A program made the position numbers and the translations under genes. The notes beneath the pieces are model-generated. The model was not told the origin of the DNA and did no database searches. It was given only the letters and a program-made list of their open reading frames with translations. A DNA stretch of 64,000 nt from an uncultured Bacilli bacterium (lineage in GTDB: Bacteria; Bacillota_I; Bacilli_A; RF39; UBA660): NCBI GenBank assembly GCA_934095865.1, contig CAKOKU010000004.1:18672-82671 (forward strand). The letters are read 5' to 3'. The first letter of the stretch is position 1. Every line of letters starts with the position of its first letter. Below, one piece after another: positions 20,070 through 39,418 of the stretch.

Positions 20070-20518
20070 TGCGGGTTGTAGTACAAAGAAGTGGTTTATC
20101 TACCGTCAGCGTTGATAATAAAGTAGTTGGTAAAATAGATTCTGGATTAGTATTACTAGTTGGGTTTAAAACCGATGATACCACCAAAGACATCTACTAC
20201 ATGGTAAGAAAAGTCTTGAATTTAAGAATATTTCCTGATGAGGCTGGCGTTATGAATAAGAGTATCTTAGATTATGGTGGCGAAATTTTAAGTATTTCTC
20301 AGTTTACTTTATATGGCAATACCAAAAATGGAAATCGGCCTAGTTATATAATGGCTGCTAAACCAGATGTAGCTAGAGTAATGTATGAGGAATTTAATAC
20401 TAAATTAAAAGAATACGTTAAAGTTGCCACGGGTATATTTCAAACAGATATGGAAGTAAAAATAACTAATATTGGACCAACAACAATTATTATTGATAGT
20501 GATATAAAAAAAGAATAA
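20069..20518 (+). CDS. dtd: D-aminoacyl-tRNA deacylase
   Basis: MRVVVQR..., SQFTLYG, NIGPTT. Confidence 0.95.
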   Translation: MRVVVQRSGLSTVSVDNKVVGKIDSGLVLLVGFKTDDTTKDIYYMVRKVLNLRIFPDEAGVMNKSILDYGGEILSISQFTLYGNTKNGNRPSYIMAAKPDVARVMYEEFNTKLKEYVKVATGIFQTDMEVKITNIGPTTIIIDSDIKKE

Positions 20519-20560
20519 AAGAAAGTATTCAATTGTTACAATTGATAGAAGAGGTATTTT

Positions 20561-21889
20561 ATGTACGATGATTCAGCGGGGGCTATGTATGAGCAAGAAG
20601 AACAATTGCGAAAGGAACAATTAAGAAAAAAAAGATTATTAATAAGAAGAATTACGGTTGTATCCGTTTTATCCATTATTGCTATATATACTATTTTCTT
20701 TTTAATTGATCAAAGTCGGTTTAAAAAAGGCTTAAAGCCCATCATTACCTTCAAAGAAACAACTAAAACATATAATGATGGCACAGTAACATCTAGATAT
20801 GGTTTAGGCTGGGTTTTTAGAGAATATAATCGAGAATCACTAATTGATACCGAAATGGTACCAATATGGCGCAAAATAAGACAAGATTATGATGCTGCTA
20901 CTACGGTTGAGACTAATCTTCCTAAAGTAAATAAAGATTATACAATTCCAGATAATCCAGATGAATTAGAAAAAGTAGATGGGGTCTTATTCTTATATGA
21001 TAGTGGTAAATTATTAGATACTTATAAATGTATTTTATCAGAAAATGATTGCCAAATAGCGCCTTCTTATTTATATGCTGATGAAACAGCAGGCTTCTAT
21101 GATGTTAAAATGGATATTGTAGATAAAAGATATGCTTTTATTAAAGAATATCAAGACAAAGGCACTGAAGATGAACTAAGTATCATCTACTTATATGATA
21201 TAAAAAATAAACAAATAATTGCTAAATATGATGATGTTCACTATTCTAAAATAGAAAATGGTAAAGGAATAATTGATTCCTCTAAATATATTATTAAAAA
21301 AGATGGCTTATGGGGAATAGATCAAGTTATTAATGGTCGAATTTCTAATATCTTAAAGTATAGTTATTACGGCATTAATTTCAGCTTCACGAGCAAAAAA
21401 TATATTTTAAAAAGTGATAATGGCTATCAAATATATGATACCAACACTGATATTTATAGCGATTATATAACAGATAAAATTGAAGATGTTGTAACAGTAA
21501 ATAATACCGTATTCTATACAACAAAAATTGTTAACAGTACTGGTGTCTTTTATAAAATTTTCAACGCCAGTAACCTTGAAGATATTCTTGGTGATAATAT
21601 ATCTTATATCCAATTAGGTAATGGTTATATTACTTATGTAAAAGATAATAAGCTTTATCTAAGTGACTTTACTGGCAAAGATTTATTAAATATGGAAATA
21701 CCACTTTACTTCAATAATTATAATGGTGCCGGTCTTAAAGCATTTAGCATTGATGAATTTGACGGAAAATTATGTATCTCAACACCAAAAAGTGCTGATA
21801 AAACGCATTATTTAATCGAATATTATTTTGATTCAATTACATATTCATTTTTAAAAACAAGAGATAATGTTCGAGAAACAACTGAATAG
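20561..21889 (+). CDS. Membrane-anchored extracytoplasmic protein, possibly WG-repeat-like
   Basis: A charged N-terminus, one TM segment (ITVVSVLSIIAIYTIFFLI), then a beta-rich region with KKDGLWGID. Confidence 0.4.
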   Translation: MYDDSAGAMYEQEEQLRKEQLRKKRLLIRRITVVSVLSIIAIYTIFFLIDQSRFKKGLKPIITFKETTKTYNDGTVTSRYGLGWVFREYNRESLIDTEMVPIWRKIRQDYDAATTVETNLPKVNKDYTIPDNPDELEKVDGVLFLYDSGKLLDTYKCILSENDCQIAPSYLYADETAGFYDVKMDIVDKRYAFIKEYQDKGTEDELSIIYLYDIKNKQIIAKYDDVHYSKIENGKGIIDSSKYIIKKDGLWGIDQVINGRISNILKYSYYGINFSFTSKKYILKSDNGYQIYDTNTDIYSDYITDKIEDVVTVNNTVFYTTKIVNSTGVFYKIFNASNLEDILGDNISYIQLGNGYITYVKDNKLYLSDFTGKDLLNMEIPLYFNNYNGAGLKAFSIDEFDGKLCISTPKSADKTHYLIEYYFDSITYSFLKTRDNVRETTE

Positions 21890-21950
21890 CCCTAAAAAAG
21901 CTATTTTTTGTTTTTTTAACGAAAAAGAGTATTTGTTCTGTTAAGTTAAT

Positions 21951-21979
21951 TTGACTAAATTCCATAAAATTATTATAAT
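21951..21979 (+). promoter_or_regulatory. Near-consensus SigA promoter for the hisS-gatCAB operon
   Basis: TTGACT (21951..21956), 17-nt spacer, TATAAT (21974..21979). Confidence 0.6.
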
Positions 21980-22005
21980 AATGGTTGTATTTATTATGTA
22001 GTAGT

Positions 22006-22040
22006 AAATCTAGTAGATAATAATACTAGATTTATTTTTT
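22006..22040 (+). promoter_or_regulatory. Terminator-like hairpin in the short hisS leader
   Basis: AAATCTAGTA (22006..22015) pairs perfectly with TACTAGATTT (22024..22033), followed by ATTTTTT. It lies between the promoter and the hisS RBS. Confidence 0.4.
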
Positions 22041-22057
22041 AGAAAAGAGGATTTAAA

Positions 22058-23323
22058 ATGATTGCAAAACAAAAGGGAACTATTGATATATATGGTTTAG
22101 ATGCTAAAAAATGGCAGTATGTAACTAAACTAATAGAAGATTTGTGTCAAAGCTATAATTATGGTTGGGTTAGAACTCCTGTTTTTGAAGCAACTGAATT
22201 GTTCCACCGTGGGGTTGGGGAAACAACTGATATTGTAACTAAAGAAACCTACGATTTTCAAGATCGCGGTAATAGAAGCATAACCTTAAGACCAGAGGGA
22301 ACAGCTGGAGTAGTCAGAAGTTACATTGAAAATAAAATGTATGGCGATGCCACTCAACCAATAAAATTATTTTATATTGAGCCAATGTATCGCTATGAAA
22401 GACCCCAAAGTGGCCGCTTAAGAGAATTTAGTCAATTTGGCTGTGAAGTAATCGGTAGCGATGATGCCTTAATTGATGCTGAAGTAATTTCAATTCCCGT
22501 TAATCTTTTTAAAACTCTTGGCCTTCGTAATGTTCGCGTGAATATTAATACCTTGGGAGATAGAGAATCGAGAGAAAATTACCGAACAAATCTAATTAAT
22601 TATTTTAAACCACATATTGATGAATTATGTGAAGATTGTAAAGTCAGATTAGAAAAAAATCCTCTTCGTATTTTAGATTGCAAAGTTGATGCTGAAAGTA
22701 AACTAATAAAAGAAGCTCCTAAAACAATAGATTATTTAAATGAAGAATCTAAAAAACGTTTTGAAGCAGTTAAACACTACTTAGAAGTCATGGATATTGA
22801 CTATGTTGTTAATCCTAAAATAGTTCGTGGTCTAGACTATTATAACCATACTGTTTTTGAAATTATGGCGGATATTGATGACATGGGCAGTCAAAGTACT
22901 TTAGCAGCTGGTGGTAGATACAATGGTATGATAGAGTCATTAGGAGGCCCAGCAACGCCAGCTATTGGTTTTGCTTGTGGTCTTGATCGCTTAATGCTTG
23001 CCCTTGAAAAAGAAGATATTGAATTGCCAATTAAAAACTGGATAGATGCCTACATTATGTATGTTTCGGACACGGAAAAAGATTATGCTGCTAGTATTTG
23101 TCAAAACCTTCGTCTTAGTGGCTTTGATATTGAAATGGAAAATATGCAACGTAGTTTAAAGGCTCAATTTAAACAAGCTGACAGATTAAATTCTAAATTC
23201 TTGATTATTTTAAATGACGAGGATATTAAAAATAAAGTAATTAAAATTAAAGATAATGTTACTAAAGAAGAAGTTAGTATCAATGAAGAAGAATTAATAG
23301 ACTACTTAAATATGAATATGTAA
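22058..23323 (+). CDS. hisS: Histidine--tRNA ligase
   Basis: Class II motifs (YRYERPQSGRLREFSQFG, GGRYNGM) and an anticodon-binding C-terminus. Confidence 0.97.
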   Translation: MIAKQKGTIDIYGLDAKKWQYVTKLIEDLCQSYNYGWVRTPVFEATELFHRGVGETTDIVTKETYDFQDRGNRSITLRPEGTAGVVRSYIENKMYGDATQPIKLFYIEPMYRYERPQSGRLREFSQFGCEVIGSDDALIDAEVISIPVNLFKTLGLRNVRVNINTLGDRESRENYRTNLINYFKPHIDELCEDCKVRLEKNPLRILDCKVDAESKLIKEAPKTIDYLNEESKKRFEAVKHYLEVMDIDYVVNPKIVRGLDYYNHTVFEIMADIDDMGSQSTLAAGGRYNGMIESLGGPATPAIGFACGLDRLMLALEKEDIELPIKNWIDAYIMYVSDTEKDYAASICQNLRLSGFDIEMENMQRSLKAQFKQADRLNSKFLIILNDEDIKNKVIKIKDNVTKEEVSINEEELIDYLNMNM

Positions 23324-23333
23324 AGGTGATAAC

Positions 23334-23630
23334 ATGAGTAAATTTACTAAACAAATGGTTGATTGTTATGCTGATAAATTGCTTATTGGCTTAACCGAAG
23401 AAGAAAATAAAATGGTTTTAGATGAATTTGAACAAATAGATAAAGATATTGCAATTATAAACGAAATTCCTAATATTAGTGATGTCGAACCAATGAGTTA
23501 TTGTCTAGATAATATGGAATGCCGCTTAAATGAAGATAAAACTACATCTACCCCTCCAATTGAAGAATTGCTAAGAAATAGTGGTCAAAAAGTGGGTAGA
23601 GAAGTTCAAATAGTAAAGGTTGTTGGATAA
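23334..23630 (+). CDS. gatC: Asp/Glu-tRNA amidotransferase subunit C
   Basis: 98 aa, directly upstream of gatA-gatB. Confidence 0.9.
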   Translation: MSKFTKQMVDCYADKLLIGLTEEENKMVLDEFEQIDKDIAIINEIPNISDVEPMSYCLDNMECRLNEDKTTSTPPIEELLRNSGQKVGREVQIVKVVG

Positions 23631-23631
23631 G

Positions 23632-25092
23632 ATGTATAATAAATTGAGTATAGAAGAACTACATAAATTACTTGTTAGTGGTCAAGTTAGCTCTGAAGAA
23701 CTAATCAAAGAATCTTTAGAATTATCAAAAGAAGTTCAAAAAAATTGTAATGCCTTTGCCTTAATTTTAGATAATGCTGTCGCAATGCCAATAACTGATA
23801 ATTTATTAAGTGGCATTCCTTATGGCATAAAAGATAATTACTCGACTAAAGATATAGAGTCATGTGCATCAAGTAATACTTTAACAGGCTATGTCCCTTT
23901 CTTTGATGCCACTGTAATTGCCAAGTTAAAAGCAGCCGGTGCTGTTGCTGTAAACAAAACTGCTATGGATGAATTCGGAATGGGTGGTACTGGTACAACC
24001 GCTAAAACAGGTTTTATTCATAATCCTTGGGACACTAGTAGAATGTGTGGTGGTTCCTCAAGTGGTTCCGCCGCTGCCGTAGCTGCTGGAGTGTATCCAT
24101 ATGCCTTAGGTAGTGATACTGGCGACTCTATTCGTAAACCAGCTGCATATTGTGGTATTGTTGGCTATAAACCAACATATGGAATGATATCAAGATATGG
24201 TTTGTTTCCTTTTGCTTCCAGTCTTGACCATTGTGGAGTTCTAACAAGAAGTGTTGCTGATGCTGCCATTGTCGTTGATAATATCAAAGGCCTTGATGAG
24301 GCTGATATGACATCATGGGATAGTAGTAAGATAAATCTTTATGCTAATCTTAAAAATGATTTAAAGGCAAGAAAACTATGCTATATTAAGGAAATTGTTT
24401 CACTAGATAATTATGAAAATCCTAGTGAAGAATTAAAAAAACATTTAACAAATTTTATGAATGTTATTAATAATTTAAAAGAGCATGGTGTTGAAATTGA
24501 AGAAGTTAGCGTTGATAAGACACTACTTAATGCCGTTGCTTCTTGTTATGTAGTTATTTCTTGTGCTGAAGCTACCTCAAATATGTCAAACTTAACGGGT
24601 ATTAATTTCGGACCTCGTGGCCAAGCAGATAATATCTATGCAGCTATGAAAGATCATCGTACAAAAGGATTTTCACCATTAATTAAAAGAAGATTTATCA
24701 TTGGTTCCTATGTTTTGCAAAGAGAAAATCAAGAACGTTATTTCAATAATGCTAAACGAGTAAGAAGACTAATAGTAGATGAATGGAAGAAGTTATTTCA
24801 AACTTATGATGCTGTTATTTTGCCTGTGGGAAGTGGCCCAGCCCCTTTCTTGGAAGGCTCTAAAAATACCTTAGCTGGCGGCGCAAAAATTCTAGAAGAA
24901 CACTTACAAATAGGCAATTTTGGTGGCTTCCCATCTATAACCGTTCCTGATGGTTTTGTAAATGGCTTACCAGTTGGCCTAAATATTACTGGTAATTGTT
25001 ATAATGACCAAACCGTACTTAATATAGCTTATGGTATTGAATCAACTATGACTTATAAAAATCAAATTGCTAAGGAGGTTTCTCATGAATAA
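23632..25092 (+). CDS. gatA: Asp/Glu-tRNA amidotransferase subunit A
   Basis: Amidase signature GGSSSGSAAAVAAG. The track ORF starts at TTG 23620 inside gatC; ATG at 23632, just after the gatC stop, is likelier. Confidence 0.95.
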   Translation: MYNKLSIEELHKLLVSGQVSSEELIKESLELSKEVQKNCNAFALILDNAVAMPITDNLLSGIPYGIKDNYSTKDIESCASSNTLTGYVPFFDATVIAKLKAAGAVAVNKTAMDEFGMGGTGTTAKTGFIHNPWDTSRMCGGSSSGSAAAVAAGVYPYALGSDTGDSIRKPAAYCGIVGYKPTYGMISRYGLFPFASSLDHCGVLTRSVADAAIVVDNIKGLDEADMTSWDSSKINLYANLKNDLKARKLCYIKEIVSLDNYENPSEELKKHLTNFMNVINNLKEHGVEIEEVSVDKTLLNAVASCYVVISCAEATSNMSNLTGINFGPRGQADNIYAAMKDHRTKGFSPLIKRRFIIGSYVLQRENQERYFNNAKRVRRLIVDEWKKLFQTYDAVILPVGSGPAPFLEGSKNTLAGGAKILEEHLQIGNFGGFPSITVPDGFVNGLPVGLNITGNCYNDQTVLNIAYGIESTMTYKNQIAKEVSHE

Positions 25093-26521
25093 TGAATTAG
25101 AACTAGTAGTCGGCATTGAAATGCACTGCGAACTAAAAAGTAAGGCTAAAGCTTTCTCAACTGGTATTAATGGTTTTAGTGATACAGCTAATGTCTTTGT
25201 TTCACCAGTTGATATGGCATTTCCAGGAACCTTACCAATTGTTAATAAGACTTGTGTAAAGCACGCTGTTAAAATGGCTAAAATCTTAAATTGCCAAATA
25301 GCAGATATAATGCAATTTGACCGTAAAAATTATTATTATCCAGATCTTCCTAAAGGTTATCAAATTACCCAATGTACTAATCCGGTTGGTATCAATGGTA
25401 AATTAGAAATCCCTGTGGGTGAAAGAACGATTACTGTTTCTATTCATGATATCCATTTGGAAGAAGATACTGCTAGTTTGGACCATTTTGCAAAAATGAC
25501 GACGATTGATTATAATCGTGCTGGCGTACCGCTACTTGAAATTGTTACCGAACCATGTTTTAATTCTGCTAAAGAAGTAATGGCTTTTCTAGAGTATATT
25601 CGTGATTGTTACCGTTATTGTGATATTTCTGATGCTGATACTAGAAAAGGTCAAATCAGATGTGATGTTAATATCAATCTAAAGAAAGATGGTAAGTATG
25701 TAACACCAAGAGTAGAAGTAAAAGGTGTCGATTTTCAAAACATTGAAGCTACTATTAAATACGAAGAGGAAAGACAAAGAAAAACTTATTTAAACAATGA
25801 AGCTGATAAATTAGTTCAAGAAACAAGAAGATTTGATGAAGCTACCAGTACAACTATTAGCATGCGTACCAAAGAAGATGCCATTGATTATAAGTATTTC
25901 TTAGATCCAAACATTCCACCATATAAACTAACTAAGGAATTTATTGAAGATGTCATTCATGAAATTCCTGTCTTACCACTTGAACGTAAGAAACTTTATA
26001 TGGAAACTTATGATTTAAATGAGTATGATAGTAATATTTTAATAAAAAATAAAGAAATTGCTGATTATTTTGAAGAGTGTGTTAAAATAGGCATCGATGC
26101 TAAAACGGCTGCCAACTGGATAACCGTAAATATAGTAACTGAACTAAATAAAGATAACGGTTCTATTAAAGATTTCTATATTAAACCATTCATGTTAAAA
26201 GAAATAACAGATGCTATTCATAAAGGTACTATTTCTAGTAAACAAGCTAAAGAAGTATTTACTAAAGCCTTAGAAAATAAAAAAGAACCAAAAGAGTTTA
26301 TTTCTAAAGAAAATGCCCAGATTTCCGATGAAGATACTATTCGCACTTTAATCAAAGAAATAATCGTGCATAATGAGCCACAAAAAAGAGCATACTTAAA
26401 TGGAAAAACAAATTTATTTGATTACTTTGTGGGTCAAGTAATGAAAGAAACAAAGGGTAAAGCTAATCCAGTGATTACAAAAGCAATTTTAAAAGCAGAA
26501 TTAGAAAGTAAAGAAGATTAA
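25085..26521 (+). CDS. gatB: Asp/Glu-tRNA amidotransferase subunit B
   Basis: VVGIEMHCEL..., YDRAGVPLLEIVTEP-type core, YqeY-like tail. ATG at 25085 follows AGGAGG (the track ORF begins at 25067). Confidence 0.95.
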   Translation: MNNELELVVGIEMHCELKSKAKAFSTGINGFSDTANVFVSPVDMAFPGTLPIVNKTCVKHAVKMAKILNCQIADIMQFDRKNYYYPDLPKGYQITQCTNPVGINGKLEIPVGERTITVSIHDIHLEEDTASLDHFAKMTTIDYNRAGVPLLEIVTEPCFNSAKEVMAFLEYIRDCYRYCDISDADTRKGQIRCDVNINLKKDGKYVTPRVEVKGVDFQNIEATIKYEEERQRKTYLNNEADKLVQETRRFDEATSTTISMRTKEDAIDYKYFLDPNIPPYKLTKEFIEDVIHEIPVLPLERKKLYMETYDLNEYDSNILIKNKEIADYFEECVKIGIDAKTAANWITVNIVTELNKDNGSIKDFYIKPFMLKEITDAIHKGTISSKQAKEVFTKALENKKEPKEFISKENAQISDEDTIRTLIKEIIVHNEPQKRAYLNGKTNLFDYFVGQVMKETKGKANPVITKAILKAELESKED

Positions 26522-26564
26522 TATAAATAAGGGGGATTATAAGACTAGGAGGTCTTTTAAGTAG

Positions 26565-27353
26565 ATGAGAAAAAAAGTAATATTAATAAGCACGATTATT
26601 ATGTGCCTAACTATTATTACTGCCGTAGCTGTCAAAAAAAGACAATACAAAAGTATAATAAATGTCCCAAATATGGATTCTTATATAACTTTATCCGCTA
26701 AAGATATAGTTAATAATCAAATAGAAGAAAGTATTGAAAATAATCAAGAAACATATGCGTTCTTTGCTAATATGTTTGGTATTGATATTAACAACTTAAA
26801 ACAAGAAATAAGCGAAAGTGTAGATAATCAATTCAACGAATTAGATATTTTAAATACTGGTGAGAATAAGAAAAATATTGATTTAGCCTTAATAGAATAT
26901 TTAACAGCCCTAGAAAATAAGAAACCAGAATTATTTAATCGTAAATATTCTTATAAAGAAACAAATAAACAATACGTTTATAATTTAATTGAATATTTTG
27001 TTTCTCTTTATCCAAGTGTTGATGTTAGAACTGCTAAAGCTATTACTTGGATTGAAACTGGTAATTTAGAAGCCAATAGTATGTTAAGAAAAAATAATAT
27101 TTTTGGAGGAATGAGTAATGGTAAATTAACTGAATATTCTTCCATTGAGTATGGCGTATATAAATACATATCACTATTAAAAAATAATTATTTTGACAAT
27201 GGCTTAGTAACTATTGAACAAATTGGTTATAAATATAACCCAACCATCATTGATGGTGTTAAACAAGCCAATCCGACGTGGGTAAATAATGTCAATGTTT
27301 ACCGCAATAAATTTGCCAGTGATATTAAAATTACATCTGTAAGTCAACTATAA
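26565..27353 (+). CDS. Signal-anchored protein with a glucosaminidase-like (LytD/FlgJ-type) C-terminal domain
   Basis: N-terminal TM segment. WIETGNLEANSMLRKNNIFGG resembles the ESGxG...NNxFG motif of PF01832-type muramidase/glucosaminidase domains. Confidence 0.45.
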   Translation: MRKKVILISTIIMCLTIITAVAVKKRQYKSIINVPNMDSYITLSAKDIVNNQIEESIENNQETYAFFANMFGIDINNLKQEISESVDNQFNELDILNTGENKKNIDLALIEYLTALENKKPELFNRKYSYKETNKQYVYNLIEYFVSLYPSVDVRTAKAITWIETGNLEANSMLRKNNIFGGMSNGKLTEYSSIEYGVYKYISLLKNNYFDNGLVTIEQIGYKYNPTIIDGVKQANPTWVNNVNVYRNKFASDIKITSVSQL

Positions 27354-27465
27354 AAAGTAATTAAAGATATGCTTAAACAAAATAGCATCGTCTAAAATTG
27401 CTTTTTTTATTTCAAAATTTTTAGCATCCAATAAGTAAATAATTACTCAGATAATTAGAAAACAA

Positions 27466-27494
27466 TTAACTTTTATAGTTTAGAATGGTATAAT
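27466..27494 (+). promoter_or_regulatory. Candidate SigA promoter for the HerA-like gene
   Basis: TTAACT, 17-nt spacer, TATAAT (27489..27494) with TGg extended -10. Confidence 0.5.
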
Positions 27495-27523
27495 TACTTT
27501 ATAAGAATAAGGAGAGTTTTAAG

Positions 27524-29287
27524 ATGTTTGGAAAAATAAAATACATTACTGAAGGAGAAGCACATGTTGAGTCTCTTTTACAGCCTGGTCAAGATGTTGA
27601 CTTGATGAATAATAATGTTGTCTTTGAAGCTGAAAATCAACGAATACTTGGTGAAATTGAAGAAGTAAATGATAATGTCATTAAAATAAGATTTTTAGGA
27701 GAATTCATTGGAGATAAATATATAAGTGGTGTTATCAGAAAACCAGTCATGTCATCAACTATAAGACAAATTAATAATGACGAATTAAAAAGTCTAATGG
27801 GAATTTATAGTGATAAAACATTTATCTTAGGCCAATCAGCTATCTATAAAGGCAATACTGTATATGTAGATATAAATGATCTTTTATCTAATCACATGGC
27901 CATTTTTGGTAACTCTGGTTCCGGCAAATCATGTGGAGTAGCTAGAATGGTGCAAAATCTATTTTCAAATCCTAATTTTATTGCCTATAATGCTAATATT
28001 TTTATTTTTGACGCTTATGGTGAATATAAAACTGCTTTTAGTAAATTAAATGAACTAAACCCTAATTATAGTTATAAATTTATTACAACTAATCCAACGG
28101 ATGCTACCGACCAAAGATTAGCTATTCCAGTTCATTTATTGACATTAGATGATATGACTCTTTTGTTACAAGTTTCAAGTCATACCCAAATTCCTATAAT
28201 AGAAAGAGCATTAAAATTAGCTAAAATCTTTGCGGATATTTCCGATGAAGCGGCAATGTATAAAAACCACTTAATTGCCAAAGCCTTACTAGCCATTTTA
28301 TTTAGTAATGAAACAACAAAAGAAAAGAAAAATGAAATATTTCAAGTAATTCAAGTATGCCATACTAATGAATTTAATTTTGATACAGATATTCCTGGTG
28401 TCGGTTATACTCGTAAATTCAGCGAATGTTTTGAAATCGATTCTCATGGTAATTTTGGCGAATCAGTTTTAATAAATGAATACATTTTAAAATTTATTAA
28501 TGATGATCTTGAAGGTAAAATAATTACCAAACCAGTTTATTATACCTTAAAAGACTTTGCAAGTGCTCTAGAATTCACTTTAATTTCCGAAGGATTTTTA
28601 CATAATGATGCCATCAGAGACGATGCTAGTATTTTAAAAGTAAGACTAAATTCTATTCTAAATAGTAGTGTTGGAACATACTTTAATTATCCTAACTATA
28701 TTACACTAGAACAGTATATTGCATCCTTAGTAGCAACCGGTGAAAGAAGAAAAGCCCAGATTATTAACATAAATCTAGAAGATATGGATGATACTTATGC
28801 AAAAGTAATAGTAAAGATATACGCTAGAATGTTCTTTGAATTTGCTAAAACTCGTACTCAAAGAGCCAGTATTCCATTCCATCTATTTTTAGAAGAAGCC
28901 CATAGATATGTTTCTAAAGATATGGATACTTTCTTATTAGGTTATAATATCTTTGAACGTATTGCCAAAGAAGGTCGTAAATATGGTGTCTTATTAAATA
29001 TTATATCTCAGCGTCCAGTTGAAATAAGTGATACTGTTATATCTCAATGTAGTAACTTTTTAATCTTTAAAATGACACACCCAAAAGATATTGAATATAT
29101 CAGAACAATGCTTCCCAATATTAGTCAAGATGTTATTGAAAAGCAAAAAGTTTTACAACCAGGTAACTGTGTAGGGTTCGGTGGGGCCTTTAAATTACCA
29201 ATGATTATAAAACTAGAAATGCCAAATCCAATGCCATATTCAACAAACTGCGATGTAAATCAAAGATGGCGTATTCATACAAATTAA
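27524..29287 (+). CDS. HerA/FtsK-clade ATPase (DUF87-type)
   Basis: N-terminal HAS-barrel-like region, Walker A GNSGSGKSCG, Walker B-like HLFLEEAHRY, and SQRPVEISDTVISQCSNFLIFKM. Confidence 0.75.
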   Translation: MFGKIKYITEGEAHVESLLQPGQDVDLMNNNVVFEAENQRILGEIEEVNDNVIKIRFLGEFIGDKYISGVIRKPVMSSTIRQINNDELKSLMGIYSDKTFILGQSAIYKGNTVYVDINDLLSNHMAIFGNSGSGKSCGVARMVQNLFSNPNFIAYNANIFIFDAYGEYKTAFSKLNELNPNYSYKFITTNPTDATDQRLAIPVHLLTLDDMTLLLQVSSHTQIPIIERALKLAKIFADISDEAAMYKNHLIAKALLAILFSNETTKEKKNEIFQVIQVCHTNEFNFDTDIPGVGYTRKFSECFEIDSHGNFGESVLINEYILKFINDDLEGKIITKPVYYTLKDFASALEFTLISEGFLHNDAIRDDASILKVRLNSILNSSVGTYFNYPNYITLEQYIASLVATGERRKAQIININLEDMDDTYAKVIVKIYARMFFEFAKTRTQRASIPFHLFLEEAHRYVSKDMDTFLLGYNIFERIAKEGRKYGVLLNIISQRPVEISDTVISQCSNFLIFKMTHPKDIEYIRTMLPNISQDVIEKQKVLQPGNCVGFGGAFKLPMIIKLEMPNPMPYSTNCDVNQRWRIHTN

Positions 29288-29363
29288 TAAAAAAATTATT
29301 AATATCATTAAAATTGTTGCTTAAAAGTTTAATACTATTTTAAACAAAATTAAAGTAAAATTA

Positions 29364-29392
29364 TTGCTTATATCAAAGTAATATGATAAACT
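29364..29392 (+). promoter_or_regulatory. Candidate promoter for the 6S RNA
   Basis: TTGCTT, 17-nt spacer, TAAACT preceded by TGa. It would start transcription at about 29398..29400, where the closing helix begins. Confidence 0.45.
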
Positions 29393-29397
29393 TAAAT

Positions 29398-29572
29398 TAC
29401 CAAAGGGAAATTAATCTATTTACATAAAACCGAGTAAGTGATTATAAGGGAATCTAATTAAATTGTGGTGTAGAAAGTCTAGGCTACGGCTCTAGAAATC
29501 CTAAAGCAGTTTATGTGATGCCCACCTGCGTGGAGCGGGTTTTTATCACAGTAGATTAATCCTTTGGTTTTT
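29398..29572 (+). ncRNA. ssrS: 6S RNA (ssrS-like), about 175 nt
   Basis: The long closing helix CCAAAGGGAAATTAATCTA (29400..) pairs with TAGATTAATCCTTTGG (..29567), then a T-run. It has a GC-enriched interior, an apical stem around GTCTAGGC-TACG-GCTCTAGA, and a small CCAC-CTGC-GTGG hairpin on the 3' side of the internal loop. The position immediately upstream of tcdA(yrvM)/rarA(yrvN) matches where I recall B. subtilis bsrA (6S-1). Confidence 0.6.
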
Positions 29573-29596
29573 AATTGTAAAAAATAAGGTGATATC

Positions 29597-30277
29597 ATGG
29601 AACAATATAGTAGAATATTAAAATTAATAGATAATAACACATTAAGTTGTATTCAAGAAAAAAGTGTTGTCATTGTTGGTATTGGTGGAGTTGGTGGCTA
29701 TGCCTTAGAAATGTTATGTCGTTTCGGCCTTAAAAAAATAACCATTATTGATGCCGATGTTGTTGATATTTCTAATCTTAATAGACAAGTAATCGCCTTG
29801 CATAGTAATATTGGTGTGTCCAAAGTAGAAATAGCTAAAAAGAGAATTTTAGATATTAATCCATCATGTCAAGTTACTGATATTTGTGTATTTTTAAATG
29901 CCAATAATATAAATGATTACATACCTAAAAATGTTGATTATATTATAGATTGCTGCGACACAGTTACTACTAAAATGGAATTAATTAAATATGCTAAAAA
30001 GAATAATATTCCAGTAATTTCTTCTATGGGTACCGGTAATAGATTAGACGCTACTAAACTTATGATAACTGATATATACAAAACGAAAAACGACCCATTA
30101 GCTAAAGTAATGCGTAAATTATGTAAAGAAAATAATATAAAACATTTAGATGTTTTAGTAAGTAGTGAATTACCAATAAAAACTCATGATCATACACCTG
30201 GTTCAACACCATTCGTTCCAAGTACCGCTGGTATTTATATAGCAAATTACATTGTTAGAAAATGGCTCCAAAATTAA
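29597..30277 (+). CDS. tcdA: tRNA threonylcarbamoyladenosine dehydratase (ThiF/MoeB family, YrvM-like)
   Basis: Rossmann motif VVIVGIGGVGGYA...IIDAD. Size and neighbourhood match yrvM. Confidence 0.8.
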   Translation: MEQYSRILKLIDNNTLSCIQEKSVVIVGIGGVGGYALEMLCRFGLKKITIIDADVVDISNLNRQVIALHSNIGVSKVEIAKKRILDINPSCQVTDICVFLNANNINDYIPKNVDYIIDCCDTVTTKMELIKYAKKNNIPVISSMGTGNRLDATKLMITDIYKTKNDPLAKVMRKLCKENNIKHLDVLVSSELPIKTHDHTPGSTPFVPSTAGIYIANYIVRKWLQN

Positions 30278-30302
30278 ACCTCTCTTAATAGACAAGAGAG
30301 GT
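30278..30302. terminator. Bidirectional terminator between tcdA and rarA
   Basis: ACCTCTCTT (30278..30286) pairs with AAGAGAGGT (30294..30302), flanked by A/T runs. Confidence 0.7.
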
Positions 30303-30307
30303 CGTTT

Positions 30308-31504
30308 TTATTTCTTCATTTCTTGATTGCCAAAATTTAAAGAATCTTCATACTTACTATGTTTAGCATAATAATAGTGTTTATTTTTAACATTATCAGG
30401 TAAATATTGCTGTTTAACCCAATATTTAGGATAATCATGAGGATATTTATAATTTGGAGAACTAGTTTTAATATGTTCAGGAACTTCGCCTGTATTGCCC
30501 ATTCTAATATCATTTAAAGCATTATCAATTGCATTTTCACTAGAATTACTTTTAGGTGACAGAGCCATTTCTAAGACTACTTGGGCTAAGGGAATCCGAG
30601 CTTCTGGTAAGCCTAAAAGTTCTGCAGCTGAAATCGCTGCCATAACCTTAGGGCCAATCGAAGGATTGGCTAAGCCAATATCTTCATAAGCAATTACACT
30701 CATACGTCTATAAATAATATCTAGATCTTCTGCCTCAATTAAACGGCCCAAGTAATAGATAGCCGCATCGGCATCACTACCACGAATCGATTTTTGGAAT
30801 GCTGAAATAATATCATAATGGCCATCATCATTCTTATCAAAAAAAATAGCCGGTTTAGAACTAATATTTTTAATTGTATCTAACGTTATATTTTTATCTA
30901 ATACACACATCGAAGCAACATCTAAAGTATTAATTGCCGTTCTAACGTCGCCACTGCTTAATTTAGCAATCGCAAATAAAGTTTCGTCATCAACCGTAAA
31001 GTTTTCTTTAATAGCTACCTTTCTTAAGCATTCAACAACATCGTCTAGCACTAATGGTTTAAGCTCAAAAATTTGGCATCTACTCCTAATAGCTGGATTA
31101 ATTTTATGGTAAGGATTACTAGTTGTTAAGCCAATTAATATTATAATTCCCGTTTCAATATATGGTAATAAAATATCTTGTTTATCTTTATTCATGCGAT
31201 GAATTTCATCAATAACCAAAATTAAATCTCCATACATCTTCGCTTCTTCAATGGCTATAATAAAGTCTTCTTTCTTCGATGATGTAGCATTTAAAAACTT
31301 ATATTTTTTATCATAAGAATTAACTAGAGCCCAAGCTATTGAGGTTTTGCCAATACCAGGTTTACCATATAAAATCATTGAAAAAAGCTTCTTGTTTTGA
31401 ACCATATTTGAAAGAATCTTATTGGGACCAATCAAATGCTTTTGGCCAACAACATCATCTAAGCTAGTAGGCCGATATTTATTAGCTAATAATTCCATAC
31501 TCAT
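30308..31504 (-). CDS. rarA: Replication-associated recombination protein A (MgsA/RarA AAA+ ATPase)
   Basis: YRPTSLDDVVGQKHL, Walker A GKPGIGKTS, Walker B LVIDEIHR, and the MgsA C-terminal domain (FQKSIRGSDADAAIYYL). Confidence 0.93.
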   Translation of the reverse strand: MSMELLANKYRPTSLDDVVGQKHLIGPNKILSNMVQNKKLFSMILYGKPGIGKTSIAWALVNSYDKKYKFLNATSSKKEDFIIAIEEAKMYGDLILVIDEIHRMNKDKQDILLPYIETGIIILIGLTTSNPYHKINPAIRSRCQIFELKPLVLDDVVECLRKVAIKENFTVDDETLFAIAKLSSGDVRTAINTLDVASMCVLDKNITLDTIKNISSKPAIFFDKNDDGHYDIISAFQKSIRGSDADAAIYYLGRLIEAEDLDIIYRRMSVIAYEDIGLANPSIGPKVMAAISAAELLGLPEARIPLAQVVLEMALSPKSNSSENAIDNALNDIRMGNTGEVPEHIKTSSPNYKYPHDYPKYWVKQQYLPDNVKNKHYYYAKHSKYEDSLNFGNQEMKK

Positions 31505-31621
31505 CTCCCTAAACTTTCTTTAGATATTATAACATAATGCTTGTTATTTAATAAATTTAATTTTATAATCAACTTAGAATAAACGAAAAAATATTAATTT
31601 TAAGAAAGGAAATTTAACTAA

Positions 31622-32512
31622 ATGGCCGATTTTTTACAAGATAAATACATAAATGTTTACCTAGATTATTTAAAATATGAAAAAAAATTATCAGAAAATA
31701 CTATAATGTCTTATTCTAATGATTTAAAGCATTTTTTTATAAAAAACATTAATTATTTAAATTTAAAGGAAAAAGATCTAAGTAATTATATCAGAAGTTT
31801 AAACAACTTAGATAGGCGTAGCTTAGCTCATCATCTAACTGTTTTAAACTCTTTTTATTCTTTTTTACTATCCGAAGAAATAATCAGTTATAATCCCTGT
31901 GCTAACTTAAAAATGCCGAAAATAACCCCTAAATTGCCAGATTATTTAACCAGAGAAGAAATAAATAAACTATTAGATATAAAATTAGAAAAGCCTAATG
32001 ATTACCGTAATAAAGCCATGTTAGAACTAGCCTTTGCCAGTGGTCTGCGTGTTAGTGAATTAACTAATTTAAAAATAAGTGATATTAATTTTGACGATTG
32101 TTATGTAAGAGTACTAGGGAAGGGGAGTAAAGAAAGAATTGTTCCTATCATTGATACGGCTCTAAATTATGTAAAACTATATATTGATTTATACCGAAAT
32201 TCTTTATTAAAACAACATGACAGTGAATATATTTTTATCTCTAGTTATGGTACAAAAATCACTCGTCAAGCATTCTTTAAATTTATTAAAGAAGAATGTA
32301 GTAGAAAAAATATTAAAAAGGAAATCTCACCTCATACCCTTCGTCATTCTTTTGCTTCAACCCTTTTAAAAGGTGGCGCTAATATCAGGGTAATTCAAGA
32401 ACTTCTAGGTCATGAAGATTTAAAGACCACTCAAATATATACGCATTTAATAGATGAAAAATTAAAAAAAGACTACGAAGAATTTCACCCTCGTAGTCAT
32501 AAAGTGAGCTAA
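31622..32512 (+). CDS. xerD: Tyrosine site-specific recombinase, XerC/XerD family
   Basis: SAM-like N-domain. Catalytic region GLRVSEL...HTLRHSFASTLLKGGANIRVIQELLGHEDLKTTQIYTH, ending ...EEFHPR as in RipX/XerD. The assignment to XerD rather than XerC is not secure. Confidence 0.8.
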   Translation: MADFLQDKYINVYLDYLKYEKKLSENTIMSYSNDLKHFFIKNINYLNLKEKDLSNYIRSLNNLDRRSLAHHLTVLNSFYSFLLSEEIISYNPCANLKMPKITPKLPDYLTREEINKLLDIKLEKPNDYRNKAMLELAFASGLRVSELTNLKISDINFDDCYVRVLGKGSKERIVPIIDTALNYVKLYIDLYRNSLLKQHDSEYIFISSYGTKITRQAFFKFIKEECSRKNIKKEISPHTLRHSFASTLLKGGANIRVIQELLGHEDLKTTQIYTHLIDEKLKKDYEEFHPRSHKVS

Positions 32513-32517
32513 CAATA

Positions 32518-32652
32518 TTATTCTTCGTTAGCACGGGCATGACATTTGCTATTATTTTTAGCACTGTTATGACATTTTGCATTATTTCTTGCGTTATTAC
32601 GTGCTGATGACGTATTTTTTGCATTATTTCTTGCATTGTTCTTTGAATTCAT
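32518..32652 (-). CDS. Unannotated 44-aa Asn/Lys/Arg-rich peptide with two KCH motifs (minor SASP-like?)
   Basis: AGGAGG, then TAATT, then ATG at 32652. Translation: MNSKNNARNNAKNTSSARNNARNNAKCHNSAKNNSKCHARANEE, stopping at TAA 32518..32520. It falls below the ORF-track size cutoff, and the track ORF 32385..32636 is in a different frame. Confidence 0.55.
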   Translation of the reverse strand: MNSKNNARNNAKNTSSARNNARNNAKCHNSAKNNSKCHARANEE

Positions 32653-32753
32653 AATTACCTCCTAATAATATTGTTGACAGAAAAAATATTTTCATACCCA
32701 ATTTAATTGCCAATTTCTGGTTTTAACTGAAATTTATTATCATATTATTTATT

Positions 32754-33485
32754 GTGATATTTATGAATGATTTAAACGCCTTATTACTAGCTTTCATTGC
32801 GGGTTTTGCTACTAATATTGGAATTTTATTTACCTACCTAGGTCACAAAAAAGTAGGGGAGATAATTGTGGTATCCCTTTCTTTTGCTTTTGGTGTAATG
32901 ACACTTATTAGTATTAAGGAACTAATTCCCCAGCCTTTAAATTATATTTTCCATACCTTAAATTTTGGAGCTGGAATAATTATTTTGTTTCTTTGTCCAT
33001 TACTAGCTTTTATAATTGTTAAACTATCAAAAGCCAAAATAAAAGAGGGAAGTAGTTTATATAAAGTAGGAGTATTAAATATGTTGTCATTATTAATTCA
33101 TAACATCCCTGAAGGTATAGTTGTTTTTACTTCCAGCATTGCCAGTCCTACTTTAGGGTTAAAGATAGCATTATCTATAATGGCTCATAATTTACCAGAA
33201 GGAATTTGTATAGCAGTACCAATATATTATAGTACTAATAATAGAAAAAAAGCATTATTATACACATTTATATCTGGAATTGCTGAACCAATTGGAGCTT
33301 TATTAACGTATTTATTTTTAAAACCATTTATTAGTTTGATATTCTTAAGTATTATTTTATATTTTGTCGGTTGTTTAATGTTAATAATTGCTATTACGGA
33401 AATTCTTCCAGAAATCTTGTCATATCATAAAAAAATATGCTTTTGTTTAGGCATATTATGTTCATTATTGATTTTATTAATATAA
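32754..33485 (+). CDS. zupT: ZIP-family divalent metal transporter (ZupT-like)
   Basis: HNIPEGI and HNLPEGI motifs and about 8 TM segments. The start is either GTG 32754 or ATG 32763. Confidence 0.85.
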   Translation: MIFMNDLNALLLAFIAGFATNIGILFTYLGHKKVGEIIVVSLSFAFGVMTLISIKELIPQPLNYIFHTLNFGAGIIILFLCPLLAFIIVKLSKAKIKEGSSLYKVGVLNMLSLLIHNIPEGIVVFTSSIASPTLGLKIALSIMAHNLPEGICIAVPIYYSTNNRKKALLYTFISGIAEPIGALLTYLFLKPFISLIFLSIILYFVGCLMLIIAITEILPEILSYHKKICFCLGILCSLLILLI

Positions 33486-33565
33486 TCTTGTAATAATATA
33501 ATATTGATATAAAGTAAGCAATTAAATATATAATTTATCATAGCCTAAATATAGCTAAAATAAAA

Positions 33566-33593
33566 TGTTAACATAATATATATTATGCGAAGT
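33566..33593 (-). other. dif: Chromosome dimer resolution site dif (XerC/D target)
   Basis: The minus strand reads ACTTCGCATAA-TATATA-TTATGTTAACA. It matches E. coli dif (GGTGCGCATAATGTATATTATGTTAAAT) at 22/28 positions and B. subtilis dif (ACTTCCTAGAATATATATTATGTAAACT) at 23/28. It is noncoding, lies between convergent genes, and sits at the strand-polarity switch. Confidence 0.75.
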
Positions 33594-34069
33594 GAGATTT
33601 ATCTAATCTTAGTCTTAAAATATTATTATATCTATCTAAATAATAACTTTTATATTCAATAATATTTATATTATCTTTATTATTAATCATATAGAAAGCT
33701 TAATTTTATGAAAAACAATCATTAATCATATATTTTATATAAGTTAAAATTAATTATTCGTTTACTCATTTATTTTTCATTTAATTGTATAATTATATCC
33801 ATTTGTTAATTAATTTAGATGAATCGAGATGAATAATTATCCATCTCAAAACATTTCGATGTACGAAAATTTAAGTCTTTTTTAGTATTTTATCACATAG
33901 AAAAACCAACATTAAAAAATAGATAATCAATGAAAAATTAAAACATTTAAATATATCATTTCGTGCTTCCCCTTCTCCATCAAATGACAAATAAATAGGG
34001 GACTTGCATTTCAAAAATATATAAAAGAACATCATATTTTATTTTCTATTCAAAAATTGAAATTAATAT

Positions 34070-34840
34070 TTAATTTTTTCTAGCTAAAATTTCTAATATT
34101 TTTTCAATAACTTCATTACCATTAGAGTTATCCATTTTTGAATAATTTAATTCTTTTAAAGCTTGGATTTTAACAGCACTTAATTCCTGAGTACGGGATA
34201 TTTTTTCTTCTTTTTTAGCTTCAATTTCAGCCAACCAACGACGATGTGCCAGCTGTAACTTGCTTCGCGATGAGCCACCATTATTATATAATCCTAAAGC
34301 CGTATATAATATTCCTTCCAAAATAAACTGTTTATCTTCCTGTAATTTATATTCTTCAGGATCTGTATAGCCACCAGTTTTACTCATATAACCAAAAATA
34401 TATCTAATTTCAGGAATGCTATCCATCATTAATAGTGTATGATAAAGATAAGTTAACGTATAAAAATTTTCTTTTTTATTATTATCTTCACTCAAACGAT
34501 CTTTTAATAAAGATGTAATATTGCTTAAAAGTTTCTGACTATCTGAATTTAAACCTTTCATATCAATAAAGCTATCACTTTCATCATGACCTTTAGTACC
34601 TTTATTGAGTCTTGATTCAACGCTCATTAAATAATCAGTAGTTATCTTTATATTTTCAATTTCTGTACCATCACTAATATCTAAGAGTTTATATAACATA
34701 ATTTTCTTTTCTTTAGGCCATTTATTTATATCATCTAATTCTAAATAGTTGTAAACCATCTGTCTAGATACGCCAAGGTATTTTGCCAACCTTACTTTTG
34801 AAATCCCTAATTCTTGAAAAAGATCATTTAGCTTTTGCAT
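34070..34840 (-). CDS. XRE-type helix-turn-helix protein with an uncharacterised C-terminal domain
   Basis: N-terminal HTH ISKVRLAKYLGVSRQMVYNYL. Upstream RBS GGTAGTGGAG. No family recognised for residues 60-256. Confidence 0.7.
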   Translation of the reverse strand: MQKLNDLFQELGISKVRLAKYLGVSRQMVYNYLELDDINKWPKEKKIMLYKLLDISDGTEIENIKITTDYLMSVESRLNKGTKGHDESDSFIDMKGLNSDSQKLLSNITSLLKDRLSEDNNKKENFYTLTYLYHTLLMMDSIPEIRYIFGYMSKTGGYTDPEEYKLQEDKQFILEGILYTALGLYNNGGSSRSKLQLAHRRWLAEIEAKKEEKISRTQELSAVKIQALKELNYSKMDNSNGNEVIEKILEILARKN

Positions 34841-34944
34841 CTACTCCACTACCTTTCAGCCTTTACATAATAATTATATCATTTGTAGTTTACATGTCAA
34901 TTAAAAAAGCAACTTTACAGTTACTTTGTTGCGTGATTTCAAAT

Positions 34945-36051
34945 TTATAAATACCACAATTTATTATCTTCTTTATATATTTCTTTAATAATTCCAGAAC
35001 CAATACATTCTTCACCGAGATACATAACACATGCTTGTCCGGGAGTAACTGCCTTCACTCCTTCCGGATATTTAACTAACATTTCTCCTGAATCTAAGTA
35101 TTCTAATTCAACAGCAAAATCTTCGCCGCGGTATCTAAATTTAGCCGTAGCTTTCGTTGGTAATTCGTCAATTAAAAGATTAACATCTTCTATCAAACAA
35201 GACGTACTTATTAGATATTTACTATCATCACCAAAGGCTACATACAATATATTTTTTTCAACATCTTTGCCACACACATAATGGCGTTGTAAATTACCAG
35301 ATATTCCAACATTACGTCTCTGACCAATTGTATAATTCATTAATCCTGTATGGCGGCCAATTACTTTCTTCGTTTCAACATCAACAATATCACCAGGATT
35401 AGGTTTTAAGTAATTATGAATAAACTTTTGATAATTTCGTTCGCCAATAAAGCAAATACCTGTCGAATCTTTTTTATTAGCGGTCTCAAGGTTTAATTCA
35501 GCGGCTATTTTTCTTACTTCCGGTTTTTCTAAACCACCTACTGGGAACAATACATTTTCTAAGGCTTTTCTATTAACCTGTGCTAAAAAATAGGTTTGAT
35601 CTTTATTCTTATCAATTCCTCTTAAAAGATGACCATTAACCATTCTAGCATAATGACCTGTTGCAATATAGTCAGCTCCTAGCTTTTTAGCTTCCTTAAT
35701 GAATAAATCAAATTTTATGTATTTATTACACATTAAATCAGGATTGGGAGTTCTCCCCTTCTCTAACTCTGTCAAAAAATACTTAAAAACGTTATCCCAA
35801 TATTCTTTAATAAAATCGACTCTATGAAGAGGAATATCTAATTGTTCGCAGACCTTTTTGGCATCATTATAATCTTGCTCTTGAGGACAAATGTTTTCGC
35901 CAAAAGTTGGATTTCCCTCAATATCATTGTTTAAAGCCGCATCCCAATTGCGCATAAAAAGGCCTATAACATTATAACCTTGTTGTTTTAAAAGATAAGC
36001 AGAAACTGAAGAATCAACTCCCCCACTCATGCCAACTACAACTGTTTTCAT
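34945..36051 (-). CDS. mnmA: tRNA-specific 2-thiouridylase
   Basis: PP-loop VVVGMSGGVDSS and a full-length MnmA. ATG at 36051 follows GGAAGTGA (the track ORF extends to 36084). Confidence 0.95.
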   Translation of the reverse strand: MKTVVVGMSGGVDSSVSAYLLKQQGYNVIGLFMRNWDAALNNDIEGNPTFGENICPQEQDYNDAKKVCEQLDIPLHRVDFIKEYWDNVFKYFLTELEKGRTPNPDLMCNKYIKFDLFIKEAKKLGADYIATGHYARMVNGHLLRGIDKNKDQTYFLAQVNRKALENVLFPVGGLEKPEVRKIAAELNLETANKKDSTGICFIGERNYQKFIHNYLKPNPGDIVDVETKKVIGRHTGLMNYTIGQRRNVGISGNLQRHYVCGKDVEKNILYVAFGDDSKYLISTSCLIEDVNLLIDELPTKATAKFRYRGEDFAVELEYLDSGEMLVKYPEGVKAVTPGQACVMYLGEECIGSGIIKEIYKEDNKLWYL

Positions 36052-36137
36052 AAAGTACATCACTTCCACAAAATATTTTATCAAATTAAGTCTTTAAAGT
36101 CTATTAAAATACATTTTTAAATAGCCAATTATCCATT

Positions 36138-38133: not shown

Positions 38134-39108
38134 TTACTTTTCGCCCTCTTCTAACATATTTATAATACTAATACCGTAACCATATTTAACATTATCAATC
38201 GTAACATGGGTAACAGCGCCAATAAGTTTGTTGTTTTGAATAATTGGTGAGCCACTCATACCTTGAACAACACCGCCAGCTTGTTTAATCAAATCTTCAT
38301 CAGTAATTTCAAAATATATATTTTTAATTTTATTATTTTTTTCTACTCTTAATATATTTATTTCATATTCTTTTTTTTCGTTATTGGCAAGTGATGTTAC
38401 AATCAAAGCAGGTCCCGGATTTATTTTGCTTGCTTCAGCTATTTCAATTAAATTATCATTATCTATATCACTTGTAAACTTTCCAAATATTCCAGCTTCA
38501 CTATTTTTATTAATATCTCCATAAATAGTATCTTTAAAGAATTTAGTATTAATACTTCCAGGATTACCATTACTACTTTTAGTTATACTAGTTATTATAC
38601 TTTTAAAAATTTTACCATCTTTAATAGCAAAGGCTTCATTACTACTACTATCAATAATATAATGGCCCAGTGCTCCATAAATCTTAGTTTCTGGATCAAT
38701 ATAAGTTAAAGTACCATTTCCTAACATACTATCTTTAACATAAACGCCAGTCTTATAACTGCCATTATTATTTTCTAAGTTTAATGTAGTAGTATATTCT
38801 TTATTATCACGAATAAAGGTAATATCAACTTTATTATCTTTAGCTAATTTATCTACTTTTTGGACTAATTCTTTAATAGAGTTTACTTCTTCCCCACCTA
38901 CTTTAATTATATAGTCACCCGATAATAAATGGCTTGGATTATAAACATTATTAACTTTGTAGAAGCCAACTACTAAAACACCTTTACTATTAATGGTTAT
39001 TCCTATATTTTGACCTCCTAAAATTACTTTATTTGAATAAGCCAATACAGATAATGGAAAACTAAGAAGTACTAAGGATACTGATAATTTTTTTATTATT
39101 TTATTCAT
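38134..39108 (-). CDS. spoIVB: SpoIVB signalling serine peptidase (S55) with a PDZ domain
   Basis: Signal anchor, PDZ (GDYIIKVGGEEV), catalytic regions YGALGH and GMSGSPII. ATG at 39108 avoids overlap with xseB (the track ORF extends to 39204). Confidence 0.85.
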   Translation of the reverse strand: MNKIIKKLSVSLVLLSFPLSVLAYSNKVILGGQNIGITINSKGVLVVGFYKVNNVYNPSHLLSGDYIIKVGGEEVNSIKELVQKVDKLAKDNKVDITFIRDNKEYTTTLNLENNNGSYKTGVYVKDSMLGNGTLTYIDPETKIYGALGHYIIDSSSNEAFAIKDGKIFKSIITSITKSSNGNPGSINTKFFKDTIYGDINKNSEAGIFGKFTSDIDNDNLIEIAEASKINPGPALIVTSLANNEKKEYEINILRVEKNNKIKNIYFEITDEDLIKQAGGVVQGMSGSPIIQNNKLIGAVTHVTIDNVKYGYGISIINMLEEGEK

Positions 39109-39181
39109 ACTATCACCATTTATAGTATGGTTCCAATTATTTTTAATATAGTGGAAATATCTGGCAAAAGAAAAAAAGACT

Positions 39182-39418
39182 TTAATTTGTCTTATCAGTA
39201 GCAAGAGTAAAGTCTTCTAAAGTATTGTTTTCTGTTAAAATTTTATTAATGCTTTCTTTGGCATTGTTTAGTTTATCACCACAAGTTTTAGCTAGCTGCA
39301 TTGCTTCACTATATTTTTTTATTGCCTCATCTAAATCAACATTGCCACTTTCTAATTCTTTAATAATAGCCTCTAATTCTTGTAATTCTTGTTCAAATGT
39401 TTTATTTGCTTTCGCCAT
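39182..39418 (-). CDS. xseB: Exodeoxyribonuclease VII small subunit
   Basis: 78 aa, FEQELQELEAIIKELESGNVDLDEAIKKYSEAMQL. Overlaps the xseA stop. Confidence 0.9.
   Translation of the reverse strand: MAKANKTFEQELQELEAIIKELESGNVDLDEAIKKYSEAMQLAKTCGDKLNNAKESINKILTENNTLEDFTLATDKTN

Follow-up and report, generated by a model that had tools for sequence, protein, structure and literature searches.

The closest described counterparts of the site reported here are the dif sites of the canonical XerCD systems of Escherichia coli and Bacillus subtilis (CodV/RipX in the latter), and the mechanism proposed below is based on homology with these two Xer systems (PMC5357621). The dif sequences of E. coli (GGTGCGCATAATGTATATTATGTTAAAT) and B. 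subtilis (ACTTCCTAGAATATATATTATGTAAACT), used as references throughout, are printed in Kono et al. 2011 (PMC3025954), where dif sites were predicted in Firmicutes and Tenericutes and where Firmicutes-type dif profiles retrieved sites across many phyla. XerC and XerD have been reported to be ancient and widespread in Firmicutes, and in most Bacilli the xerD gene lies beside scpA/scpB (PMC8136486). A different arrangement is found in the atypical single-recombinase systems, XerS/difSL of streptococci and lactococci and XerH/difH of Helicobacter and Campylobacter, of which the linkage of the recombinase gene to its site is a hallmark (PMC5357621).

We analyzed a window of 64 kb, by which we mean the whole stretch of DNA studied, from an uncultured low-GC member of the Bacilli; its GC content is 29%. 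A 28-mer on its minus strand (33593..33566, ACTTCGCATAATATATATTATGTTAACA) is very probably the chromosomal dif of this bacterium, located where the replication forks meet. Direct reading of positions 33566..33593 bore out the preliminary description of this 28-mer as an 11-6-11 site, with two 11-bp arms and a 6-bp center (Table 1). The arms show partial dyad symmetry; when aligned as an inverted repeat, they agree at 7 of 11 positions, including the inner CATAA/TTATG. We recounted the identities to the two experimentally validated sites and obtained the same values as had been given before, 22 of 28 positions for E. coli dif and 23 of 28 for B. subtilis dif, and the reference sequences quoted at the time agree with the published ones (PMC3025954). 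The mismatches had also been described as confined to the outer arm ends and a single central base. This was true of E. coli dif (positions 1, 2, 4, 13, 27, and 28), but not of B. subtilis dif, for which the mismatches fall in mid-arm (positions 6, 7, 9, 24, and 28).

Table 1. Coordinates of the dif site and of neighboring features in the 64-kb window.
Feature	Position	Strand	Basis or remark
dif site, 28 bp	33566..33593	-	direct read: ACTTCGCATAA / TATATA / TTATGTTAACA
XerD-type arm (plus-strand coordinates)	33566-33576		
6-bp central region (plus-strand coordinates)	33577-33582		
XerC-type arm (plus-strand coordinates)	33583-33593		
Skew and gene-orientation switch zone, terminus direction	29700..33900	.	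cumulative skews, ORF strands
rarA	30308..31504	-	
xerD-type tyrosine recombinase gene, 296 aa	31622..32512	+	NCBIfam, Pfam, structure matches
zupT, ZIP zinc transporter	32754..33485	+	NCBIfam ZupT E = 5e-53; Pfam Zip
HTH256, 256-aa clade-specific protein	34070..34840	-	N-terminal XRE-like helix-turn-helix
HTH256 consensus promoter	34900..34873		
Sporulation genes (SpoIVB-type peptidase S55, CotE, SpoIIP)	38134..39204, 58021..58539, 61795..62745		

The site lies in noncoding DNA between convergent genes, as had been claimed: zupT, on the plus strand, terminates at 33485, and the nearest real gene beyond the site is on the minus strand and has its end at 34070. The former is the last plus-strand gene, with its stop codon 80 bp before dif; the latter, which encodes a protein that we call HTH256, comes first among the minus-strand genes, its stop codon being 476 bp away from dif on the XerC-arm side. 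No second dif-like position was found in the 64-kb window, all other positions having at least 9 mismatches to any dif reference. The identification as dif made in the preliminary description is supported by the terminus switch around the site, its conservation in relatives, the presence of its core in other genomes, and the adjacent gene for a XerD-type recombinase, each of which is described below.

Nearly all ORFs are on the plus strand to the left of 33.5 kb and on the minus strand to the right, and the GC skew passes from about +0.15 to about -0.25 across this switch. The cumulative G-C curve peaked at 30167, remained on a plateau up to about 33.9 kb, and then fell steadily; the cumulative A-T curve peaked at 32515. 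Convergent genes at a switch from positive to negative skew correspond to a replication terminus and not to an origin, and both the skew and the gene strand switch at 30-34 kb, as would be expected of a terminus located within the window. The maximum of cumulative G-C lies about 3.4 kb to the left of dif; this offset is due to rarA, the only gene left of the switch that is read from the minus strand. Ter-like repeats were sought around the terminus (29-38 kb), and the matches obtained were weak, no better than chance would produce in AT-rich DNA.

The window carries numerous core housekeeping genes, among them dnaB/dnaI-like genes, uppS, cdsA, rseP, rpsB, tsf, uvrC, queA, relA, dtd, and hisS, as well as gatCAB, mutS, nusB, xseAB, tgt, efp, mraW, and the genes of two PBPs, and is therefore chromosomal rather than plasmid DNA. 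Given the sporulation genes listed in Table 1, this 'Tenericutes/Mycoplasma-like' lineage appears to have a cell wall, to form spores, and to possess a small, AT-rich genome.

Several further features of the neighborhood were recorded. The genes relA, dtd, hisS, tcdA (yrvM), rarA (yrvN), and mnmA, distributed over positions 17904..36084, resemble a single block of the B. subtilis chromosome, which we take to be relA-dtd-hisS-aspS-yrvM-yrvN-cymR-iscS-mnmA. If this comparison holds, an ancestral synteny block of the Bacilli contains the terminus and dif at the place that cymR-iscS occupies in B. subtilis. At 27524..29287, on the plus strand and 4-6 kb from dif, a gene encodes a 587-aa ATPase of the HerA/FtsK superfamily, with a DUF87 domain and a weak match to the FtsK_SpoIIIE P-loop. 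Its synteny is conserved, and its product is 94-95% identical in relatives in which XerD is about 70% and the rarA product about 85% identical. The scores of this ATPase were far under the cutoffs of the HerA models for anti-phage systems, and it had no visible NurA-like partner. Between this gene and tcdA, a 6S RNA gene (SsrS) was detected on the plus strand at 29394..29574 (Rfam RF00013, 54.8 bits for a gathering score of 46.4). Between xerD and zupT, a short conserved ORF (32518..32652, minus strand) encodes a repetitive, basic peptide of 44-49 aa (MNSKNNARNNAKN...CH...), which might be a small spore or regulatory peptide; the ORF was also called at the equivalent place in four related loci (L007-L009 and L012), and two 24-nt direct repeats (32575-32598 and 32617-32640) are located inside it.

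To describe the site in relatives, we compared the loci of XerD homologues with identities from 74% down to 56%; eight loci were found via XerD or synteny, and the dif pattern was not used to find them. The relatives are labeled as uncultured Bacilli, Tenericutes, Mycoplasma sp. CAG:956, or Candidatus Coprovivens(-like). Gene order was kept (rarA < xerD > (zupT >) ... < 256-aa gene < mnmA), and each locus contained one dif-like site in the convergent gap. These sites read ACTTCACATAA..., GCTTCACATAA..., ACTGCACATAA..., GGTTCGTATAA..., ACTTCGTATAA..., TAAGCAAATAATATATATTATGTAAACC, and TAAGAATATAATATATATTATGTTAACC. Overall, the site was conserved in relatives L001-L013. Positions 8-23 and 25-27 were invariant in the eight loci and the outer part of the XerC arm drifted; this invariant island (ATAATATATATTATGT.AAC) is embedded in intergenic DNA that is unalignable among the relatives. 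A fixed island next to a drifting XerC arm is the pattern expected of a protein-recognized site whose XerD arm would be held tightly and whose XerC arm would be held loosely. In three of the relatives (L007-L009), the cumulative skew maximum was located within 0.6 kb of dif.

The 23-base core of the site (CRCATAATATATATTATGTTAAC) was then scanned in one genome per species for 185,579 species, among which the species of the window itself seemingly is not represented. The core was found in 89 stretches of DNA from 88 species belonging to many phyla, with one match per stretch; the sole genome with two stretches carries the same site on two overlapping contig ends. The core is thus present once per genome in these 88 other species; the site itself is unique within the 64 kb of the window. 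The species concerned include Rhodobacteraceae, SAR86, Krumholzibacteriota, Bacteroidia, and Omnitrophota, several of them with 57-75% GC, a composition in which a 23-mer made of this AT-rich core cannot be due to chance. The finding of the core in many phyla agrees with the broad retrieval of sites by Firmicutes-type profiles (PMC3025954). For 47 core loci, at least 1.5 kb of sequence was available on each side, and the skew was higher on the left than on the right in 45 of them; it switched from positive to negative in 36, and the reverse switch was never observed. As it is both terminus-associated and single-copy across bacteria, the core behaves as dif.

About 38 of the 89 core loci were syntenic with the window, the closest having 82% nucleotide identity. 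At the core loci from other phyla, neither a xerD homologue nor the 256-aa gene was found. The genome with two stretches, the Krumholzibacteriota MAG CSMAG_2137, was a particular case: both contigs (L050 and L070) end in the same 141 bp, which contain dif. As the assembly is thus broken at dif, the population concerned may harbor strain variation or an insertion at this site.

On the XerD-arm side of dif in the window, a gene transcribed towards the site and ending 1054 bp before it encodes a 296-aa tyrosine recombinase, so that a XerD recombinase is encoded by this genome. Among the NCBIfam models, the protein scored highest with XerD (TIGR02225, 313 bits, just under the equivalog cutoff of 329.6), followed by XerC (284 bits) and XerS (118 bits). 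It passes the PRK00283 tyrosine recombinase model and contains the Pfam Phage_integrase and SAM-like N domains. E. coli XerD (1a0p) was its best match among solved structures, with 175 bits, ahead of XerA (127 bits) and XerH (66 bits), and PGAP names its relatives XerD. Matches to this protein came solely from metagenome contigs and metagenome-assembled genomes.

The proximity of this gene to dif is shared by the related lineages. Among the low-GC loci bearing the core, 26 had a xerD homologue (39-73% identity), located 0.7-5 kb from the site, on the XerD-arm side and directed towards dif. The arrangement is compact in L065, in which the xerD stop codon lies 17 bp before dif and the stop codon of the 256-aa gene 271 bp after it. 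Since xerD is found beside scpA/scpB in most Bacilli (PMC8136486), the gene has moved in this low-GC clade. As a separate observation, the linkage (seen, for example, in L065 at 1567..2523, and in L044 and L080) extends across the low-GC Bacilli clade and apparently also to Acholeplasmataceae genomes.

A linked gene and site raise the question of a self-contained module in which the XerD-type enzyme alone would act on both arms, with no XerC. The displacement of xerD from its usual neighborhood and the recurrence of its position near dif are in favor of such a module, as is the typical occurrence of gene-site linkage in XerS and XerH systems (PMC5357621); moreover, a tblastn search found no second tyrosine recombinase within the 64-kb window. 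The site itself, however, has the standard 6-bp spacer and two unlike arms, one of them of the XerC type (CGCATAA), which sets it apart from difSL and difH. The locus thus shares with the single-recombinase systems the gene adjacent to the site, but neither the atypical site nor a XerS/XerH-type enzyme, the protein being much closer to XerD than to either of these in the scores given above. XerC could be encoded elsewhere in the genome, and both XerC and XerD are widespread and ancient in Firmicutes (PMC8136486). In addition, no xer gene was present among the genes called within about 5 kb of dif in L109, a divergent relative described below. A single-recombinase system is therefore improbable, and we retain the reading of the 28-mer as a canonical dif.

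The gene on the other side of dif encodes HTH256, whose N-terminal 45 residues are invariant across homologues and whose C-terminal part is all-helical. Searches against Pfam and NCBIfam assigned it to no family and returned sub-threshold helix-turn-helix matches only, and a PDB sequence search gave no match. Its AlphaFold model was of low confidence (pLDDT 66, pTM 0.34), and a Foldseek search with this model returned only non-significant XRE-type helix-turn-helix matches (E > 0.7). The family is narrow and clade-restricted: a profile search of 1.84 billion representatives yielded 348 clusters, with about nine near-full-length clusters among the 150 matches listed. None of these searches connected HTH256 to a characterized protein.

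HTH256 adjoins dif in 30 related loci (45-85% identity), reading towards it, and is located on the XerC-arm side in 29 of these; the exception is L085, where the gene is 5.3 kb away on the XerD-arm side. In 17 of the 30 loci, the gene lies next to mnmA. In the most divergent member, L109, it overlaps mnmA in an operon-like manner, and a dif-like site (ACTTCCTATAATCTATATTATGTCAACT) is present 670 bp downstream of it, exactly at the convergent junction, with the cumulative skew maximum 1 bp from the edge of dif.

Conserved gene order around a stable terminus is the simplest reading of the neighborhood formed by HTH256 and dif; a functional tie between the two is conceivable. Terminus factors encoded beside their sites are known: rtp adjoins Ter in B. 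subtilis, and tus adjoins TerB in E. coli. By analogy, xerD > dif < HTH256 could constitute a compact, co-inherited terminus module, in which either XerD would act without XerC or HTH256 would be an accessory factor of the terminus or of dif. We consider such a module unlikely. The overlap between the HTH256 gene and mnmA in L109 weakens the idea of a dif factor.

The core was also present in six viral contigs of IMG/VR (33-56% GC), in which the outer arm is different. The six include L103, L105, L106, L107, and L108; four of the six share the 28-mer TATTCGCATAATATATATTATGTTAACA and have 45-56% GC, and two (L103 and L108) carry the site no more than about 150 bp from a contig end. These viral sites may be the borders of prophages or of Xer-integrating elements (IMEX) inserted at dif in unrelated hosts. 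Because several of the viral copies are near a contig end, the site of the window could, in principle, likewise belong to a mobile element, as an IMEX junction or a plasmid site of the cer/psi type, instead of being the dif of the host. However, the GC contents and the different outer arm indicate that the viral contigs are unrelated to the window organism, and the window has chromosomal core genes. The site is adjoined by housekeeping genes in conserved synteny and not by phage or mobile genes; no second dif-like site was found in the 64-kb window. Across strains L001-L006, a duplicated or pseudo-dif flanking an insertion was absent. It is thus highly improbable that the 28-mer is a mobile-element site.

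A transcription-factor operator that happens to resemble dif, bound either by HTH256 or by a Fur-family metal regulator acting on zupT, would account for the palindromic core (CATAATATATATTATG) and for the position of the site between a zinc transporter gene and the gene of a DNA-binding protein with an invariant helix-turn-helix. The site is, however, at the 3' ends of both genes and not at a promoter, the promoter of HTH256 being separate (Table 1), and termini in phyla without HTH256 carry this core as well, so that the 28-mer can hardly be an operator.

Finally, chance was assessed using 300 simulated windows generated with a third-order Markov model of the AT-rich window sequence. Only 1 of the 300 windows (about 0.3%) contained a position that matched either single reference as well as the real site does, and the match to one reference is therefore weak evidence when a whole AT-rich genome is considered. 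The joint match to both references is not: the summed mismatch was 11 for the real site and never fell below 16 in the 300 simulations. That the site is a functionless, AT-rich quasi-palindrome, as a genome of 1-2 Mb with such a composition (29% GC) could hold one match to a single reference, is a most unlikely explanation and is in practice refuted by the conservation data, namely the invariance of the site in relatives with unalignable flanks and the single-copy core at skew switches in high-GC genomes of other phyla, to which its location exactly at the convergent junction can be added.

We therefore return to the 28-mer as a chromosomal dif, at which Xer recombinases would resolve chromosomes that have become joined in the course of replication. 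An odd number of crossovers after replication would produce a chromosome dimer, and the two copies of dif would be brought together at the division septum. There, XerD would occupy the invariant TGTTAACATAA arm and its partner, presumably XerC, the variable ACTTCGCATAA arm, with strand exchange probably occurring at the edges of the 6-bp TATATA spacer. A translocase of the FtsK/SpoIIIE type, steered to dif by polar motifs, would activate the reaction at the septum. The site, its place at the terminus, its conservation, and the adjacent xerD-type gene are observed here; from homology to the Xer systems of E. coli and B. subtilis, we infer that a partner recombinase exists, that a translocase is required, and that catalysis takes place.

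As for the polar motifs, the most skewed oligomers of the window were purine-rich and of the GAAGAA type, and their polarity reverses at dif. [quoted passage not shown] This polarity fits a KOPS-like model but is not independent evidence for it, because nearly all genes are co-oriented with replication. No FtsK/SpoIIIE gene was found within the 64-kb window.

As a marker of the replication terminus in a genome known solely from metagenome assemblies, the site can be used to orient and check such assemblies, and to locate origin and terminus when growth rates are estimated from peak-to-trough read coverage; its annotation also adds a feature that gene callers miss. The site is nevertheless an ordinary, canonical dif of a well-known class, which brings nothing new on Xer recombination. 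The only mildly new point is the clade-wide linkage of xerD to dif (and to HTH256), as a lineage-wide association of xerD with a fully canonical dif is unusual, gene-site linkage having so far been described for the atypical, single-recombinase systems; the small HTH256 family accompanies this linkage in every case.

Compared with the canonical XerCD/dif systems of E. coli and B. subtilis, the locus exhibits the same length of 28 bp, the same 11-6-11 layout, the same location at the terminus, and a genome-encoded XerD-type recombinase; here too, conservation is higher in the XerD arm than in the XerC arm. With B. subtilis dif, the site also shares an identical TATATA spacer. The XerC arm is a hybrid, its outer part (ACTTC) being that of B. 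subtilis and its inner part (CGCATAA) that of E. coli. The main difference from the canonical systems is the position of xerD, 1 kb from dif here and beside scpA/scpB in most Bacilli (PMC8136486).

With XerS/difSL and XerH/difH, the locus has in common a recombinase gene linked to the terminus site. However, difSL is 31 bp long with an 11-bp center, whereas the present site has the standard length of 28 bp and a 6-bp spacer; the recombinase reaches 118 bits with the XerS model, for a cutoff of 267, and 66 bits with the XerH structure versus 175 for XerD. Finally, the site belongs to the same class as the dif sites predicted in Firmicutes and Tenericutes by Kono et al. 2011 (PMC3025954), from which it differs in lineage, as it comes from uncultured gut bacteria known solely from MAGs, the genomes of which were absent in 2011.
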